From: Nitrospirales bacterium
GTDB lineage: Bacteria > Nitrospirota > Nitrospiria > Nitrospirales > UBA8639
Assembly: GCA_965223295.1 (NCBI GenBank)
Contig: CBDCWC010000003.1
Span: forward strand, 1,216,001-1,280,000
Length of the DNA: 64,000 nucleotides
Reading direction: 5' to 3'
Shown: piece after piece, positions 9,400 through 17,714 of the stretch
Numbering within the stretch: position 1 is the first letter of the stretch
How the letters are laid out: every line of letters starts with the position of its first letter
Notes under the pieces: model-generated
Told to the model about the DNA's origin: nothing
What the model saw: the letters and a program-made list of their open reading frames with translations, nothing else
Database searches by the model: none
Translations under genes and position numbers: made by a program

Positions 9400-10002
9400 A
9401 TGGATGAATGTTGCAAGGTCACCACCGTTTCGGAACGGCAGCGTGATGTTGTTCGAGCCGTGCTCTGGATTAACGTCAGCATGTTTCTTCTGGAAGCGAT
9501 AGCCGGTCTTCTCAGCCATTCGACCGCCCTTCTAGCCGATTCAGTTGACATGTTGGGCGATGCCCTTGTCTATGGGTTTAGTCTGTATGTGATTGGACGG
9601 GGTTCGGTGTGGCTAGGGCGCGCTGCTGTGCTCAAAGGTGTCATGATGGGCGTATTTGGTATGGGTGTGCTGGCGCACGTGGTTTTCAAGACTGTGTATG
9701 GCTTCGTACCAATGGCCGGGATGATGGGCGTGGTAGGCGCAATGGCACTCGCTGCCAACCTCATTTGTCTCATGCTCCTTTGGCAGCACCGAGGCGATGA
9801 TATCAACATGCGGTCCGCATGGATGTGTTCTCGCAATGATGTCATTGGCAATGCGGGCGTGCTTGTTGCGGCTCTTATGGTCTACCTCTCCGACTCCCCC
9901 TGGCCAGATATTGTGATTGGGCTCTTGATCGCCACTCTTTTCGTTCGGTCTGCGATTGCCATCATCCGTGAAGCCTCAAGAGAGTGTTCATCTGCAATCT
10001 GA
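9400..10002 (+). CDS. Cation diffusion facilitator (Co/Zn/Cd efflux) transmembrane protein lacking the C-terminal domain
   Basis: STALLADSVDMLGD, DINMRSAWMCSRNDVIGN, WPDIVIG; N-terminal CC. Confidence 0.88.
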   Translation: MDECCKVTTVSERQRDVVRAVLWINVSMFLLEAIAGLLSHSTALLADSVDMLGDALVYGFSLYVIGRGSVWLGRAAVLKGVMMGVFGMGVLAHVVFKTVYGFVPMAGMMGVVGAMALAANLICLMLLWQHRGDDINMRSAWMCSRNDVIGNAGVLVAALMVYLSDSPWPDIVIGLLIATLFVRSAIAIIREASRECSSAI

Positions 10003-10046
10003 ACTTTTTATCTTCATTATTCAACACACTCTCTTAGGAAGGATAA

Positions 10047-10829
10047 ATGCTCGTGAGCTCTATTTTTCGGCATAGTGCCCTTTATGTGATTCTGATCAGT
10101 ATGGGCTGTAGTATTGCAAGTTGTCTGACAGTTCCCAGGGTCAAAACGCCTCTCTTTGAAGGATCACAAGGGGCCATTGCTTTACAAGTCTTTGCCGAGC
10201 CAGAGAAAAGGGCTCAACACCCCGTTGCCCTGGAACCTCACATCATACGTGGGGTGCTCGAGGGCCTGTATGTTCAAGATACCCAAAGTCTACTTGAATC
10301 AGCACTGACCAACAACAATTCTCCGATACAGGCTTTCACGGAAACAGAAATTCAGTTCTTAGTCCCACACGTGATTGATGGATTGGCAAAAGCGACCTCA
10401 GAAGAAGAGGTTGTCTTTCGAATACATACACGTCATCCCCAGAATACACTATATACAACCGGCGCTCTGTATTATGCAGATGAGACTCTCCATGTCATCG
10501 TTCATGGATATCATGAGGCCTCTAAAAGACCTCCATTACTTTCTAGACCGTCTAACTCATTTAGCCGTCCCAAAATGTGGAATATGTCATTTCAACCAAT
10601 TGGGGCCTTGACCAGCGATTACCTGGATGCCACTTCCCAGACATCCTTCCCCTTTCACTTTGCGATCCATCTTCCTACGTTGGCAAAGTCGATGGAGCGT
10701 AATGCCCAAACCGTTTCTCCTGCATCCTCGTCCATTCATGAAGAATTAGAAGGGTTGCGTGAATCCCTCCAACAACAACACCAACAACTGGAACACCTCG
10801 AAGACCAACTGCAAACAGGCAGTCCCTAA
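10047..10829 (+). CDS. Hypothetical lipoprotein with C-terminal coiled coil
   Basis: Hydrophobic N-terminus with lipobox-like IASC; AGGA RBS. Confidence 0.7.
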   Translation: MLVSSIFRHSALYVILISMGCSIASCLTVPRVKTPLFEGSQGAIALQVFAEPEKRAQHPVALEPHIIRGVLEGLYVQDTQSLLESALTNNNSPIQAFTETEIQFLVPHVIDGLAKATSEEEVVFRIHTRHPQNTLYTTGALYYADETLHVIVHGYHEASKRPPLLSRPSNSFSRPKMWNMSFQPIGALTSDYLDATSQTSFPFHFAIHLPTLAKSMERNAQTVSPASSSIHEELEGLRESLQQQHQQLEHLEDQLQTGSP

Positions 10830-10911: not shown

Positions 10912-11790
10912 TTATTTCGAGATAGGGTGAAACACTAGCCGACGTAGCCATTGTCCCAGAGCTATGAGGCCTAGAAAGACACAAGCCAACAACGAATCAG
11001 TGGCACCAGTAGGCCAATCCATGAAAAACGATACAAGAAATCCAATGAGCGCAATTCCAGCTCCCAAGAATCCTCCCAGAAGCGGGACAAGAAAGAACCT
11101 TTTGGCGAGTCGGATGGCTATCATCGTGGGGAGGAGCAGGAAGGCAAACGTAAGTAAAGGTCCGACCATTAGTACTCCTAACGAAATGGCGAATCCTACC
11201 AGGCCATACAAAAGGATATCCCATACCCAGAGCCGTTTGCCCAGGGACAAGGCCAGATCCCGATCGACGGAGACTAATAACAACTCCCTGCGAAAAAGAG
11301 TAATCAGCAGGACAATGGCCGTATAGGCTGACAGAAGGATGGCCATGTCCATATCGGAAATAGCGATGATTTGTCCTCGCAAAAGTGTGACGATGCCTAC
11401 CTCTGGAACCCGCTCTGATGCCAGTAACAGAATGGTTACCGCTCCAGCAAAAACGTATACTGTTCCTATCCGGCCTTCTACCATCTCATGGCCCCGTCGT
11501 TCCAGCGTCGCAAGAAGCAACAAGGTTCCCGTGGTCACAATCGTTGAACCAAAGAGGGCGAGGAGAAAATCACTATGAGTCGGTTGTTGTTGATGATAGG
11601 TCAAATGCCAAAACACTGCTGCGGCAATTCCACCGGTCGACAATTGGGGAAGGGTTACCCCCAAGAACACCATCCTTCTACAATACATGAAGACCCCAAT
11701 GAGCGGCAGAACGATCCCCGTGACAATTCCTCCGTACAAGGCATTCCGTAAAACATAGGATGGATGAAGAATGGTGAAGAGTTCTTCCAT
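10912..11790 (-). CDS. znuB: Metal (Zn/Mn) ABC transporter permease
   Basis: Multi-TM, RRMVFLG, ELLLVSVDRDLA, VGPLL; clustered with ATPase and binding protein. Confidence 0.85.
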   Translation of the reverse strand: MEELFTILHPSYVLRNALYGGIVTGIVLPLIGVFMYCRRMVFLGVTLPQLSTGGIAAAVFWHLTYHQQQPTHSDFLLALFGSTIVTTGTLLLLATLERRGHEMVEGRIGTVYVFAGAVTILLLASERVPEVGIVTLLRGQIIAISDMDMAILLSAYTAIVLLITLFRRELLLVSVDRDLALSLGKRLWVWDILLYGLVGFAISLGVLMVGPLLTFAFLLLPTMIAIRLAKRFFLVPLLGGFLGAGIALIGFLVSFFMDWPTGATDSLLACVFLGLIALGQWLRRLVFHPISK

Positions 11791-11829
11791 ACACTTTAGA
11801 TATCTGGCAACAACCTTCTCTTAATCACT

Positions 11830-12507
11830 TCAGGCATAATGTTCTACTGGCTGTGTTTGCACGGTCCGATACCCAATCTCGATGACATCCTGCACAACTT
11901 GAAGAAGTTCTGGAATAAAATGATCCGCCCATAACAAGGTAATCCCTGTATCAGATTTCAACTTGACTAGTAACCGCAACATGGTTTGGACCGTCTTTTT
12001 GTCGAGGCTTGCCAAGGGTTCATCCAACACCAGAACCGCAGGGTCACTGGCCAAGGCTCTGGCGATTAACGTGCGCTGTTGTTGACCCCCTGATAATTCT
12101 GAGTACCGCTTCCGTTCTAAGTCCCCAATTTCTACTTCTTGTACCGCCCAATCGATTTTGTCCCGCTCGACCCTTCCCAACCGTTGCCAAGGTTTGATGT
12201 TTCCATATGTCCCCATCTGAATTACCTCTCCAACGGTCAAGGGTAGCAGTCCATTTAACGCCGCTCGTTGCGGGACGTATCCGACACGCAGAGAATTATT
12301 TTCCTCAGAAGTTTGACGATACAGCCTGCCTTCTATTGGGGAGAGGATCCCCGCAATCGTTTTAAGAAAAGCCGTTTTCCCAGAACCATTTGGGCCTAAA
12401 ACGGCATACGAGTCTCCTGGAAAAATCTCAAGAGAAACCTTCTCCAAGATCGGAAGGCCCTGATACCCAATCGTCACATTTTCGAGTGAGATAAGGGGAG
12501 TTGGCAT
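11830..12507 (-). CDS. znuC: Metal ABC transporter ATP-binding protein
   Basis: GPNGSGKT, GYVPQR, LSGGQQQR, LDEP. Confidence 0.9.
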   Translation of the reverse strand: MPTPLISLENVTIGYQGLPILEKVSLEIFPGDSYAVLGPNGSGKTAFLKTIAGILSPIEGRLYRQTSEENNSLRVGYVPQRAALNGLLPLTVGEVIQMGTYGNIKPWQRLGRVERDKIDWAVQEVEIGDLERKRYSELSGGQQQRTLIARALASDPAVLVLDEPLASLDKKTVQTMLRLLVKLKSDTGITLLWADHFIPELLQVVQDVIEIGYRTVQTQPVEHYA

Positions 12508-12525
12508 TGGGAAATTACGAGGAGA

Positions 12526-13461
12526 TTAAGGAATGCTGAGTGCATTCAGCATAGAATGAAGATTAAATTCAATCAGTTTTTCATAGGTGTCAATTCCTGG
12601 ATTTCCCCCGACCATAATAAGAAATTTTGCGACCGTGGATCCAGTTTGGTCGGCCACCCAATTTGGAAGTCGTTCGGGATAATGCGGTTCGCGCAACACC
12701 AGGCCAACCTTCTGTTCCTTCATTCGATCCACTAACCAGACCAAATGCCCTTGAGTCGGTTCAATTCCCGGTTTAATTTCAATTTGAGCGACTTCCTGTA
12801 ATCCAAATCGTTCCGCAAAATAAATCGTATCTTGATGGTAAGAGACAAACTTTACTCCACGGAGTGGTTTGGCAAGTTGTTGCCACTCAATGAGCTTCTT
12901 GTCCAGATGCGCATGAAATTTTTGTACATTGGCTTGAAAATGAGGTTCCCCCACAGGAAAAGCCTTTGACAGTCCATCAGCAATCGTCTGTGCCATGACC
13001 TTGGCGTAGACTGGATCAAGGTTAAAATGTGGATTTCCGAGTGGATGAACATCACCCTCACGCCGAAGTAATGATTTGGGAACCTGCTTGGGGTTGATGT
13101 TCCAGGCGCAATTAATCAATCCTTCATTTCCGGGAAGAATTTTAGGGTTTCTGGCTACATCAACTAACGCCGGTAACCAGGAATGTTCGGCGTCCAGTCC
13201 CAATATCACCAGAACATCGGCTCGATTCAGTTTTGGGACAAAACTCGGTTTGATCGGCACCCCATGTGGATCTTCCACGCCTTTGGCCAAGCTCTCCACC
13301 GACACAAACTTTCCTCCGATCCTGGCGGTAAAGTCCGCCAGATCGGGGATAGAAGTCACAACCTGAATTTTCCCTCCTTCATCAAGATTCGGGCGTTCAG
13401 CCATCCCGAGTGAGCAGCCCAGGAGGAACAACAAAAGAAGGTTCTTGAATCTCTCTCTCAT
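12526..13461 (-). CDS. znuA: Zn/Mn (cluster A-I) substrate-binding protein
   Basis: Signal peptide, DPH, GNPHFNLDP and SYH metal ligands; metal identity not provable from sequence. Confidence 0.85.
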   Translation of the reverse strand: MRERFKNLLLLFLLGCSLGMAERPNLDEGGKIQVVTSIPDLADFTARIGGKFVSVESLAKGVEDPHGVPIKPSFVPKLNRADVLVILGLDAEHSWLPALVDVARNPKILPGNEGLINCAWNINPKQVPKSLLRREGDVHPLGNPHFNLDPVYAKVMAQTIADGLSKAFPVGEPHFQANVQKFHAHLDKKLIEWQQLAKPLRGVKFVSYHQDTIYFAERFGLQEVAQIEIKPGIEPTQGHLVWLVDRMKEQKVGLVLREPHYPERLPNWVADQTGSTVAKFLIMVGGNPGIDTYEKLIEFNLHSMLNALSIP

Positions 13462-13518
13462 GATGTGTACTTATGGGAATGTTGAAATTTTCATGATTCA
13501 ACACGACTCCTATCGAAA

Positions 13519-15240
13519 TTACTCTCTTTCCGTAAACCCGTGTTGATGACTGCCGATGACCACCTGCCATTGCAGCAACACTTGATTTTGTGGATCAAAG
13601 GTATTGCCGTAGCGGCTATGATTATATTGCAACACCAAACGGTGAAACTCGCTTGGATAGTACGTGATATAGGGGGAGTATGTCACAGCAGACGTTCGAC
13701 TTCCTGAGGTGTTGACTGTACTGCCCGGGTTCCCCGTTTTAGGATTGGTGACCAGGGCAGGTTCGCTCGGCATTTGGTGATAATCAAACCGGAAACCCGG
13801 ACGCCATTGTTTGTTCAACCGATATTCGACGTACGCATAGCCCCCCCAAGCCCCGCGAGATTTCGTGTTTCCAAAAATACTCCGGCGACCTTGTCCATAG
13901 TCATAAAGGATTTCCCCGTGAAACGAAAGACTTTGCCGTAACCCCCTTCCCAAAGGATACCAGCGATAGTGAAAATCCACATTAAAGGTGCGCCGATCAA
14001 TCGGATCGTCTTCATCCACGGCCAGGAATGCCAGTTCACTCGCCTCTGGCACTCGGGATTGCGGGGTGTAGAGAAATGAGAATCCTAATTCTACATTGTG
14101 ATCATCCGTGAGATCTTTATACGTACGCAGCGAACCAAAGAGAGTACTTCCCTGAATCACTTGGGTTCGAATATTACTCAATGGGCCTTCCCCCACGAAC
14201 CCAAAATTAAACCCATATCCAGCGGTCAGCGCTAAATACGTATCCGTCGGTGCCAGCCATGATAGCTCTATCCCGTCCGTTCGATTTCCATTGCCCATAT
14301 ACAAGGCTAAGGTTGGAGGAATATCAATTTGGGGTAAATCATGAGCATGCCGTCGCCCTAAATACCCCCAATCCGCAAAAAACCGACCTCCGCGTATGGA
14401 CAGGTTATAAGGCAAAGAAGTCGTCTGTATGGCCGCCTCTTCGATCTCGAAAACCGCTTTTCCGAATTCTTCTGATCCGCGAGAATTCACCCCTTCGGCA
14501 TGCCCGGAGGCAATTAAATAGGCTCTGGCAAATGGATCGACATCTGCAGCCGCAAACAATTCGATCGTTCGAAGTGCAGAAGAAAAACCAGCAGGGAGTT
14601 TGGTTCCGATTTCTCCACCTGCATCGTCTCCATCGCCATCGACAAATCGCATGCGGCGTTGGGTATAGCCCCCTATCGTTTCAAACACAACCCCAAATGC
14701 TGGATTAAAACGATTTAGAATTTGTTGACGGCGGAGAATGCCCTTTTCTCTTGGTGTTTCTCCAATGTCCAGAACTGGAGGTACGTCCATCGGCATACCC
14801 CCTGCTCGATTGTATATATCCTTGGGCTTGGCAGAAGACTTCGCTCCAGGAAATCGATTCTCTAACGAAGGTCCGTGTGTTGAAGTTTCAGTTTCGGCAG
14901 GAGGATCCTGGAGAGGCCGTACATCCATCGGCATACCCCCTGTGCGATCAAGTAAATCTTTGGGCTTTGAAGATGATTTTGCCCCTGGGTATCGATTCTC
15001 TAACGAAGTCCCCTGTGAGGAACTTTCAGATTCATCTTGGGATGCGGCAGCTGCCAAGCGTACATCCTGAGATACATGCATTCGATGAATGTCTTCCCTA
15101 TAGCTATGTAATCCTTTGGAATTCTCGTATATGCTCGCAGCCCATGTTTCTGTTGAAATAAAAAATAGGATAGAAACGAGCAATAGGCCGAGCATTCTAA
15201 CCCCTAGAAATAGGGAAAATGTCTTTCTTATACGAAACAT
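13519..15240 (-). CDS. Outer-membrane beta-barrel/porin-like protein of the metal uptake operon
   Basis: Signal peptide, amphipathic beta strands, RRHAHD motif, C-terminal VIGSHQHGF; GGAGGG RBS. Confidence 0.7.
   Translation of the reverse strand: MFRIRKTFSLFLGVRMLGLLLVSILFFISTETWAASIYENSKGLHSYREDIHRMHVSQDVRLAAAASQDESESSSQGTSLENRYPGAKSSSKPKDLLDRTGGMPMDVRPLQDPPAETETSTHGPSLENRFPGAKSSAKPKDIYNRAGGMPMDVPPVLDIGETPREKGILRRQQILNRFNPAFGVVFETIGGYTQRRMRFVDGDGDDAGGEIGTKLPAGFSSALRTIELFAAADVDPFARAYLIASGHAEGVNSRGSEEFGKAVFEIEEAAIQTTSLPYNLSIRGGRFFADWGYLGRRHAHDLPQIDIPPTLALYMGNGNRTDGIELSWLAPTDTYLALTAGYGFNFGFVGEGPLSNIRTQVIQGSTLFGSLRTYKDLTDDHNVELGFSFLYTPQSRVPEASELAFLAVDEDDPIDRRTFNVDFHYRWYPLGRGLRQSLSFHGEILYDYGQGRRSIFGNTKSRGAWGGYAYVEYRLNKQWRPGFRFDYHQMPSEPALVTNPKTGNPGSTVNTSGSRTSAVTYSPYITYYPSEFHRLVLQYNHSRYGNTFDPQNQVLLQWQVVIGSHQHGFTERE
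14783..15006 (-). repeat. Intragenic tandem repeat, 138-bp (46 aa) period
   Basis: SLENRYPGAKSSSKPKDLLDRTGGMPMDV versus SLENRFPGAKSSAKPKDIYNRAGGMPMDV. Confidence 0.9.
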
Positions 15241-15246
15241 AGTCTA

Positions 15247-15375
15247 CCCTCCAAATTTTCTTAAATTTTTCCCTTTTGGGGATTTGGGGGAACAGGGCCA
15301 AAAGGTCACCATTCTCCAACAGGCCAAAAAAGAAATTGGTAAATAGAAATGTTTAAGAAGAATTAAGCGAGGGGA
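15247..15375 (-). promoter_or_regulatory. Predicted mRNA stem sequestering the porin-gene SD
   Basis: mRNA 5' arm CCCUC..AAUU-C-UUCUUAAA-CA-UUUC is complementary to 3' arm GAAA-AA-UUUAAGAA-AAUU..GGAGGG. Confidence 0.6.
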
Positions 15376-15686
15376 GGCGCTCGTGATCCATCTACACGAA
15401 GGCTTAAGGAAGATACCCATGACCGATGAGGATGGTAAGAAAAATCTTTTAGTTCACAAGTGAGACCGGACTTGTAAGAATCCTGAACATAGGATCCCCC
15501 AATGTGGTGCTCTACCCAGGTACAGAGGTCATGTTCGGCATGTTCATGTCCATCATGGTCAATTTCAGAAAACAGATGATGAACTTCAAGGGCCAACCCG
15601 AAGGGGACAGAGAAAAGGAGCACTCCACTAAGCAGGAGCAGAACTAAGAAGGTGAGTCGAAGTCGGGAAGAGCTTGTATCAGTCAT
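15363..15686 (-). CDS. His-rich exported leader peptide with C-terminal RAPP motif (DUF2946/CruR-like)
   Basis: Hydrophobic N-terminus, EVHHLFSEIDHDGHEHAEHDLCTWVEHH, ends SRAPPLA*. Confidence 0.8.
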   Translation of the reverse strand: MTDTSSSRLRLTFLVLLLLSGVLLFSVPFGLALEVHHLFSEIDHDGHEHAEHDLCTWVEHHIGGSYVQDSYKSGLTCELKDFSYHPHRSWVSSLSLRVDGSRAPPLA

Positions 15687-15719
15687 GGCTTGATTGGCCT
15701 TTTCAGAACCCGGAAGCGC

Positions 15720-15748
15720 AATTTAACAGGGAGAAAAGATGTAGTCAA
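15720..15748 (-). promoter_or_regulatory. Sigma70 promoter of the metal uptake operon
   Basis: Minus strand TTGACT-17 bp-TAAATT with TGn. Confidence 0.6.
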
Positions 15749-15753
15749 TGGAA

Positions 15754-15772
15754 ATTGCAAATAATTTGCAAT
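15754..15772. promoter_or_regulatory. Fur-family (Zur-like) operator
   Basis: Perfect 9-1-9 palindrome ATTGCAAAT-A-ATTTGCAAT next to the -35. Confidence 0.7.
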
Positions 15773-16987: not shown

Positions 16988-17177
16988 GGGACTGTTGAAT
17001 AATGATGATATTAACGGCCAAGTTTCGGCTCTGTGACGTCACATGTCAGTGGCTTCAGGTCTGTTCAAAAATGTCGTCCAGCAAGGCCGCAGCCATTTTT
17101 GTGCGCGGAGCGTATCGGTAATACGTGAGCACGGAAAACAGGCGAGAACGCCGCTGGCGGCTTTTTTCAACAAACCC
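16988..17177 (+). mobile_element. MITE family A copy 2 (190 bp)
   Basis: Ends GGGACTGTTGAA / TTCAACAAACCC; flanks CCTAT/TCTAT. Confidence 0.85.
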
Positions 17178-17249
17178 TCTATAGAAAAAACTTGTTCCTT
17201 TCCTATTCACCCCTCAAGTCGTCTGCCTGCCTGTCCGATGAATGTCTGT

Positions 17250-17714
17250 ATGAGACCAAAAGGTAGTGCAAAAAAATTAGAAGCAAGACGACGGCTAGCT
17301 GCGAGTATGCTGGCCAAAGGTCGAGGCATTCGTGAAGTGGCAAGAAAAATCGGCGCCGCACCATCTTCTGTGAAACGATGGAAGGATGCATTAGAAGAGG
17401 GTGGAAAAAATGCGTTGAAATCGAAACCCCACACGGGTCGTCCATCACGTCTTTCGGCTGCGCAACGCCAATCGCTTCTCAAAATTCTTCAACAAGGGCC
17501 ACGGGCTGCCAATGTTCGGGCTGATCAATGGACATGCCGGCGTGTGGGTACCGTAATTCGACGGTGTTTCGGCGTAAAATATCACCCGGACCATGTCAGC
17601 CGAATTTTGCGGGCCTTAGGTTGGAAGTATAAAGGGAAAAACAGCGTGCCTGCCAAGAGAAAGCCAATGCCAGGTCATGCTCAGTGGTCTAGCCTTTCAC
17701 GGCGTCACCGCTAG
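17250..17714 (+). mobile_element. IS630-family transposase N-terminal (HTH) fragment, no DDE domain
   Basis: MRPKGS..LEARRRLA, SSVKRW, GRPSRLS, WTCRRV, FGVKYHPDHVSRILRALGW. Confidence 0.8.

Follow-up and report, generated by a model that had tools for sequence, protein, structure and literature searches.

The DNA described here, a window of 64,000 nucleotides (nt) from a Nitrospirales bacterium (assembly GCA_965223295.1, contig CBDCWC010000003.1, positions 1,216,001 to 1,280,000 of the forward strand), contains on its reverse strand a set of metal-uptake genes, headed by a short open reading frame (ORF) that we refer to as the leader and that probably encodes a metal sensor acting through ribosome arrest. 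The leader ORF (15363..15686, including the stop codon) encodes 107 amino acids (aa) and is present in a single copy in the genome, with no second copy in the window. It is followed on the same strand by an intergenic region of 122 nt (15241..15362) and by genes for a porin-like outer-membrane beta-barrel of 573 aa (13519..15240; its BBP2/OmpL-like match scores 24.5 bits and narrowly misses the cut-off of 26.2 bits), a ZnuA-family substrate-binding protein of the zinc type (12526..13461; PF01297, 151.7 bits), an ATP-binding cassette (ABC) ATPase (11830..12507; ABC_tran, 95.9 bits) and an ABC-3 permease (10912..11790; ABC-3, 103.2 bits). Upstream of the leader lie a sigma-70-type promoter predicted by a consensus scan (15720..15748, reverse strand; TTGACT-17-TAAATT, with a TG before it) and, six bases further upstream, a perfect palindrome TTGCAAAT-N-ATTTGCAA (15755..15771), which is a candidate Fur-family operator and the sole match to its pattern in the window. 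An earlier reading of this locus (the original prediction) had described a first gene with an N-terminal hydrophobic segment, a His cluster and a linker of ~40 aa, placed ahead of a porin and metal ABC uptake operon, and both the gene and the operon are present as described.

The leader peptide begins with basic residues, a hydrophobic stretch follows (residues 8-33), and residues 11-33 (15588..15656, reverse strand) form a putative export segment, whose small-x-Ala end precedes the motif LE[VI]HH and would be the site of cleavage. All aligned members of the leader family share this layout, in which basic residues are followed by ~22 hydrophobic residues and then by small-x-Ala, as in an export signal. 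The adjoining segment (residues 34-61; 15504..15587, reverse strand) is the putative His/Asp/Cys sensor, with conserved ligands and a predicted helix-turn-helix, and residues 36-61 of it read HHLFSEIDHDGHEHAEHDLCTWVEHH. The linker that follows (residues 62-101, 40 residues; 15384..15503, reverse strand) is variable in sequence and fixed in length in the alignments, and is predicted to be coil. It leads to R102-A-P-P105, encoded by CGA GCG CCT CCC (15372..15383, reverse strand), in which the Arg and both Pro residues are invariant and which by analogy is the presumed stall site. The RAPP motif had been predicted to be terminal; in fact the peptide ends in SRAPP followed by Leu-Ala and a TAA stop codon. 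Similarly, the single Cys of the original prediction is correct for the His cluster and for the conserved positions, where C55 stands alone, while a second, non-conserved Cys (C77) lies inside the linker.

The AlphaFold2 model of the leader (mean predicted local distance difference test score, pLDDT, 70.7) comprises a helix from residue 4 to residue 45, which spans the hydrophobic segment and reaches the first His residues; beyond a turn, a further helix (residues 50-62) bears D53, C55 and W57, and the linker is modelled as coil at a pLDDT of ~50-55. If Pro104 occupies the ribosomal P site, 49 residues separate C55 from the peptidyl-transferase centre. Given the general lengths of the exit tunnel and the translocon, this distance would put the hairpin just past the translocon. 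The figures support, but do not prove, sensing on the periplasmic side of the membrane, as has been argued for the copper-binding leader CutF.

Taken by itself, the C-terminal motif of the leader is no more than would be expected by chance: of the 26,533 ORFs in all six frames of the genome, nine with a length of at most 250 aa carry R[AG]PP within their last 12 residues, versus one to eight for scrambled versions of the motif. The conservation of the leader nevertheless exceeds chance, because sequences that are only 18-79% identical to the window peptide share an invariant Arg, two invariant Pro residues and a spacer of fixed length. A word-based search identified 20 close homologues (52-80% identity), and SRAPP is present in 19 of the 21 aligned sequences, with one of the others ending in TRGPP and one having a diverged end. 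A profile search of 1.84 billion cluster representatives extended the family to 87 leader clusters (E <= 0.001). Across 53 diverse members, the only invariant residues are Met1, H37, H49, D53, C55, R102, P104 and P105, while W57 is nearly invariant; the single invariant Cys sits within D-[LI]-C-x-W, with a Glu or Gln four residues further on.

The spacing between the Cys and the Arg was counted in the 62 of the 87 representatives in which C-x-W is followed further on by R[AGP]PP, the other 25 mostly appearing to be cut, chimeric or frameshifted. It is 46 or 47 residues in 61 of these sequences (46 in 48, 47 in 13) and 94 in the remaining one, and it is also 46 or 47 in all 23 intact copies found at genomic loci. 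The shorter gap belongs to the SR[AG]PP and most of the PRAPP forms, and the longer one to the PRPPP form. Only three endings are found among the 62 representatives (RAPP in 39, RGPP in 19 and RPPP in 4), and the tail beyond the ending is two residues long in 35 of them. Essentially no linker sequence is conserved between clades; within clades, however, about ten residues ahead of the Arg show clade-specific conservation, which is the pattern expected of residues that lie in the exit tunnel.

A scan of one genome per species yielded 25 leader loci, 24 of which are labelled Nitrospirales or Nitrospirota. The other (L012), a whole contig of 2.7 kb in a Gammaproteobacteria bin, bears a leader of the receptor-associated clade described below, and since this leader resembles the Nitrospirales copies, a binning error is probable. 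Of 401 genomes sampled from the phylum, 98 match the leader profile, all of them in three families of one order (20 of 39 in one family, to which our own genome is to be added, 75 of 76 in another and 2 of 2 in the third), and no match was found in the genomes sampled from the other families of the phylum. Degenerate copies also occur. Two truncated remnants (L020:5478-5798 and L021:5857-6135) still stand behind the palindrome and are now beside a cation-efflux (CDF) gene, and a frameshifted leader (L025:5944-6288) precedes a broken receptor gene.

The genes downstream of the leader point to the uptake of metal and, in the window, of zinc in particular. The nearest NCBIfam models of the three ABC proteins are those of the zinc-related AztC/A/B set (AztA for the ATPase and AztB for the permease), all of which score under their own cut-offs. 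Among proteins of solved structure, the binding protein is closest to the zinc-specific ZnuA of Synechocystis (2ov1/1pq4), and the His residues of its DPH, NPH and YH motifs align with the three His of that ZnuA. These three His are presumably the zinc ligands of the Synechocystis protein. The combination of a three-His PF01297 protein with an ABC-3 permease and an ATPase is that of a ZnuA-family (cluster A-I) zinc importer. The porin N-terminal region (14779-15006, reverse strand) contains, ahead of the barrel, two units of ~30 residues, 46 residues apart, of the form SLENR[YF]PGAKSS.KPKD...GGMPMDV.P.

The leader-porin-ZnuA-ATPase-permease order was recovered in 16 loci by tblastn with the window proteins, and the porin is directly next to the leader in 15 of the 25 loci. 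A second clade of leaders, mostly ending in SRGPP and five further residues, precedes a TonB-dependent receptor of 806-827 aa and a small TonB_C protein; this context is complete in five loci (L011, L015, L017, L018 and L023) and cut in two (L012 and L014). In both contexts the leader is the first gene of an operon of the metal-homeostasis type, and it is separated from the next gene by 116-134 nt in 21 of 22 loci, as judged from predicted starts, and by 91 nt in the other. The original prediction had looked to homologues for conservation of the His cluster, the linker length, the RAPP ending and the position; H37 and H49, the 46/47-residue spacer and the RAPP-type ending are retained as described above, and the position ahead of uptake genes (a porin, ZnuA or TonB-dependent receptor gene) is fixed.

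Several loci depart from the common order or carry further genes. In the genome of the closest relative, an IS1595/ISXO2-type transposase gene (L001:6469-7425, forward strand) sits between leader and porin, so that the two are uncoupled. In another locus, a second complete leader (L010:8699-9028, forward strand), which ends in PRPPPSS, separates the porin gene from the ZnuA gene and comes with a palindrome and a promoter of its own, so that the two halves of the operon would be controlled separately. Convergent to the uptake operon of the window are a cation-efflux (CDF) gene and a gene encoding a protein of 260 aa without known function (9400-10829, forward strand), whose position is kept in many related loci. 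A 223-aa ORF with transposase-type HTH_32, HTH_29 and HTH_33 domains (17043-17714, forward strand) also lies near the operon.

With up to two mismatches allowed, the palindrome is found upstream of 27 of 27 leader copies, in each case 4-6 nt ahead of a TTGAC[AT] box (the box being assigned by eye), and the 56 matches on both strands of 573,564 locus positions are all accounted for by sites upstream of leaders. Its 7-1-7 layout resembles what we take to be that of Fur-family boxes. At the same stringency, the genome of the organism contains four sites, compared with none for a control pattern; two of these, each with two mismatches, are inside long ORFs and are treated as chance matches. The best other site in the genome (L028:2578-2594, one mismatch) is followed by TATAAT and is 50 nt before a FUR-family gene (L028:2644-3066; 94.6 bits), one of three Fur-family genes in the genome, which is overlapped by a gene for a MerC-family membrane protein (L028:2644-3559 for the pair). 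The FUR-family protein encoded there is probably the autoregulated repressor of this regulon, and the operon very probably has, at the putative operator, a transcriptional metal switch besides the leader. The claim that the leader would add a layer to Fur/Zur control therefore stands as regards the Fur-family-type operator, which makes a second layer plausible, but the regulator itself is not typed as Zur.

Between the leader and the porin, the intergenic region consists of a G-poor pyrimidine tract, a hairpin, GGAGGG and the ATG of the porin gene, as judged from its composition and a consensus fold. The first 40 nt past the leader stop codon contain 2 G, compared with a background of 9.8 +/- 3.1, and the hairpin appears in the consensus fold of seven close loci with three compensatory pairs. 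Around the leader stop codon (-80 to +40), the excess of C over G averages +14.3% (n = 22, minimum 6.7) compared with -1.1 +/- 9.1 for 138 other ORF ends, 8.7% of which reach 14.3; the Pro codons account for part of this excess and the loci share ancestry, so that the statistic overstates the difference. The genome contains a gene for the termination factor Rho (685.9 bits). An intrinsic terminator was also considered for this region and rejected, the candidate being a weak five-pair hairpin over the RAPP codons, whose stem is not kept in related loci on inspection by eye.

The best precedent for this arrangement is CruR (Bp2923) of Bordetella pertussis, the prototype of the DUF2946 (PF11162) family; in CruR, the 45 residues between a CXXC motif and RAPP are conserved to within 1-2 residues and altered spacing impaired regulation (PMC9426467). 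Translation stalling at RAPP and RGPP has been reported (PMC12992588; PMC9426467), and a 2025 survey names these as the strongest arrest motifs, describes upstream ORFs that carry them as enriched before TonB receptors and metal genes, and reports arrest by CruR in vitro (PMC12992588). The leader family resembles CruR in being a small first gene of a metal-uptake operon that encodes an N-terminal export signal and a predicted poorly structured chain, in combining a metal motif, a fixed spacer (45 residues in CruR, 46-47 here) and RAPP 2-3 residues before the stop codon, and in being followed by a long intergenic region with an excess of C over G and then by an outer-membrane importer. Other features differ. 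In place of CXXC, the leader family has one invariant Cys with an invariant set of His, His and Asp, and it remains below the Pfam cut-off. Unlike CruR, which is described as preceding a receptor and a PepSY protein, it precedes a porin and a zinc-type ZnuABC, or a receptor and a TonB protein. Moreover, it lies behind a Fur-family-type operator and is found in Nitrospirales, while CruR is reported mostly from Proteobacteria.

On balance, and with reasonable rather than full confidence, we read the 107-aa ORF as a CruR-type regulatory leader, that is, a nascent-chain metal sensor read out via ribosome arrest. This proposal builds on the anatomy, conservation, fixed spacer, operator, gene contexts, Rho gene and C-over-G composition observed above, and by analogy with its precedents it supplies the stall and its polarity, the compartment, the metal and the role of Rho. 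Transcription would start from the promoter guarded by the Fur-family-type operator, and the N-terminal signal would bring the nascent leader to the Sec translocon. Once R-A-P-P is being translated and Pro104 and Pro105 occupy the P and A sites, the hairpin that bears H37, H49, D53 and C55, 46 residues behind the Arg, would be outside both the exit tunnel and the translocon. If no metal is available, the stall would last, and the stalled and queued ribosomes would cover the C-rich end of the leader and block the loading of Rho, so that RNA polymerase would continue into porin-znuABC. If metal (most likely zinc) is bound, the hairpin would fold and pull on the chain, the stall would be released and the ribosome would terminate two codons further on, after which Rho would end transcription in the ~120-nt intergenic region and uptake would be off. 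The polarity, in which metal releases the stall, is chosen because the downstream genes serve uptake and because of the CruR precedent. The zinc-type binding protein is the single feature that narrows the metal, probably, towards zinc.

Several results weigh against parts of this interpretation, in addition to the limits on the C-over-G statistic given above. The window leader matches no Pfam family at E <= 0.1 and no NCBIfam model; the DUF2946 model has no match in the genome even at E <= 10, and in 151 genomes of the order no match exceeds its gathering score of 23.7 bits, the best reaching 20.7 bits. Membership of DUF2946 in the sense of Pfam is rejected on this account. The family also lacks the CXXC motif of CruR, as the original prediction had stated, as well as CXXXC, and no second conserved Cys is present in the 53-member alignment. 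The pyrimidine tract is partly paired in the conserved predicted hairpin, which is ill-suited to an unstructured Rho site in the spacer. The candidate operator is located immediately before the predicted -35 box and not over the promoter, and the Fur-family gene linked to the palindrome scores under the cut-offs of all NCBIfam models. The receptors of the second context match only generic TonB models, far under their cut-offs, and no substrate-specific model.

Despite falling outside the Pfam family, the leaders retain traces of kinship with it. Sub-threshold matches to DUF2946 occur in 8 of 26 diverse members (10.9-17.5 bits) and reach the last position of the profile; several of the best sub-threshold places in the 151 genomes coincide with those of the leader profile; and a protein-language-model search returned, among the neighbours, a cluster with 16% DUF2946 members at a score of 0.95. 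The genome itself encodes, outside the window, two sister leaders (L048:4074-4418, forward strand, and L049:4895-5197, reverse strand), each with a signal peptide, a His-rich stretch, L-C-[TS]-W-x-C (a CxxxC motif) and an SRAPP end, and with 41-48 residues from Cys to Arg. One of them stands after TPR-TonB-ExbB-ExbD genes and before two unknown ORFs and a cytochrome P460 gene, and the other before genes for a Phenol_MetA_deg-type outer-membrane barrel, a CarboxypepD_reg protein and a PhoD phosphatase. A profile comparison relates the two to the leader family at 87% and 89% probability. We read the leader family as a distant, single-Cys and His-rich branch of a CruR/CutF superfamily, outside the Pfam family as such.

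The second characterised relative, CutF of Rhodobacter capsulatus, is described as a leader in which copper binding switches on a detoxifying oxidase by melting a stem-loop (bioRxiv 10.1101/2025.02.05.636593). CutF and the leader family have in common a nascent-chain metal sensor that is exported, a stall site rich in Pro close to the C-terminus, and periplasmic sensing that is proposed to accompany co-translational export. The CxxxC motif of CutF is present in the two sister leaders and absent from the leader family. The leader family differs in preceding uptake genes, in having one conserved Cys compared with four Cys in CutF, and in a folding test that did not support unmasking of the next start codon. 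Arrest peptides that monitor Sec or YidC offer a further comparison. ApdA is the name of one such peptide of the RAPP-like kind. ApdP and SecM likewise have a C-terminal R-A/G-P-P behind an export signal, with release by pulling force proposed (PMC7897499, PMC10951233, PMC10987492). These monitor the secretion machinery and precede sec or yidC genes, however, whereas the leader precedes metal-uptake genes and has a conserved set of metal ligands; in the window, it is followed by the porin and metal ABC genes and by no secretion or insertion component.

The original prediction knew of no description of this in Nitrospirota, but a claim that nothing of the kind is described would be too strong. 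The class is published, and at least 19 rows of the supplementary RAPP list of PMC12992588 are members of the leader family (ALEIHH...DHDGHEHS..DLCQW...SRAPP), each given as a 'hypothetical protein' before a TonB-dependent receptor; other rows of the list, in the portion available, precede a 'carbohydrate porin' or receptors termed 'zinc-regulated'. The leader-family rows are unannotated, and the accessible main text contains neither the word 'zinc' nor the His/Cys site, spacer, operator or porin-ZnuABC context of the family. Full-text literature searches returned nothing that links arrest peptides with zinc uptake, and did not tie Nitrospira to DUF2946, CruR or CutF, save for a phylum name in a figure legend. 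Relative to CruR and CutF, the leader family is new in its set of ligands, probably in its metal, and in its operon contexts.

Two models of how a stall would be read out were compared. The porin start region (AUG and GGAGG) pairs with the RAPP codons (GAGCA/CCUCC) in both the minimum-energy fold of the window and the consensus fold of seven loci, with a mean of 5.4 base pairs between the start and the footprint region in the ensembles of 22 loci. The same sensor and stall could act on translation in the style of SecM or CutF, with a parked ribosome holding the codons CGA GCG CCU CCC and freeing the porin start. Of 23 leaders, 16 use CCU for the first Pro, compared with a CCU usage of 31% in the long ORFs of the window, and CutF is described as melting a stem-loop over a ribosome-binding site (bioRxiv 10.1101/2025.02.05.636593). 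When the footprint of the stalled ribosome was masked, however, the start region did not open: its partition-function accessibility over 22 loci was 0.40 when free, 0.38 when masked and 0.42 with a control mask, and increased in some loci only. The paired columns are invariant and hence show no covariation, CCUCC complements any strong Shine-Dalgarno sequence, and the z-score of the whole-region fold is only -1.12, so that we consider this translational route rather unlikely. Because masking failed to open the start region, we lean, tentatively, towards the CruR-like, Rho-dependent read-out, with the translational route retained as its rival.

The identity of the signal has been weighed in the same manner. 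An arrest leader that responds to something other than zinc, whether a different metal held by His and Cys, such as copper, or a stress of secretion or of the envelope, is brought to mind by the two characterised relatives, CruR and CutF, which are both reported to sense copper. His and Cys ligands also bind Cu, Ni and Co, and neither the receptors of the second context nor the palindrome-linked Fur-family regulator matched a specific model above cut-off. Set against this is the ZnuA-family protein with three aligned His, the zinc pattern, in the operon of our genome and of 15 related loci; we know of no copper-specific member of the ZnuA-type transporter family. Moreover, the copper-type CxxxC motif is borne by the other two RAPP leaders of the genome, which suggests a division of labour between leaders, and a signal other than zinc seems unlikely to us. 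Very improbable, in our view, is the polarity of CutF, in which metal induces or prolongs a stall that turns the genes on, and the operon would answer to an excess of metal. CutF, a member of DUF2946, is indeed reported to stall with copper bound (bioRxiv 10.1101/2025.02.05.636593), and the RPPP subgroup of leaders has a PPP run as in CutF; yet the genes controlled here (the porin, zinc-type ZnuABC, and the TonB receptor with its TonB protein) serve uptake, and expression induced by metal would amount to positive feedback. The Fur-family-type operator ahead of the promoter fits induction under scarcity, and the release proposed for CutF needs disulfides among its four Cys where the leader family has one that is conserved. 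The least probable of the alternatives considered is that the product is a stable protein of the envelope, for instance a metal chaperone that serves the porin or ABC importer from the periplasm or from a membrane anchor, with no regulatory role for the RAPP end. Uptake operons often include small accessory proteins that bind metal, and the leader is predicted from its sequence to be exported and has a conserved His/Asp/Cys site. However, of the 107 residues ~45 belong to a coil modelled with low confidence, which is not conserved in sequence and keeps its length; outside the His/Asp/Cys site, invariance is confined to R-x-P-P, 2-5 residues from the stop codon in most members; and one type of gene, always first, serves three types of downstream gene. 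CruR, with the same layout, was moreover undetected as a protein and is considered short-lived (PMC9426467).

The fullest form of the preferred reading, in which a CruR-type leader is released by metal, is a two-compartment zinc switch in Nitrospirales, and here our confidence falls short of an even balance. A cytoplasmic Fur-family repressor would gate the promoter, and the nascent, exported His2-Asp-Cys peptide would read periplasmic zinc, with the 46-residue ruler holding its metal site immediately beyond the translocon when the ribosome arrests. It would be the first arrest peptide to sense zinc, a metal other than copper, encoded in a portable operator-promoter-leader cassette that is placed before porin, ABC importer and TonB receptor genes alike.

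The leader is a real, strongly conserved and order-wide gene which, as far as can be read from its sequence, has every hallmark of a metal-sensing arrest peptide. Metal-sensing ribosome arrest has so far been demonstrated for copper only, in CruR and CutF, and if the proposal is true, the principle extends to another metal, and the periplasmic and cytoplasmic status of a metal could be combined at one operon. The 46/47-residue spacer and the His2-Asp-Cys site would permit a direct test, with a metal other than copper, of whether a ligand-induced fold outside the translocon releases a stall. Such experiments are feasible, as the receptor-linked form of the leader appears to be carried by several cultured Nitrospira, judging from locus tags in the available part of the PMC12992588 list. 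The leader family occurs almost throughout a major group of nitrite oxidisers.

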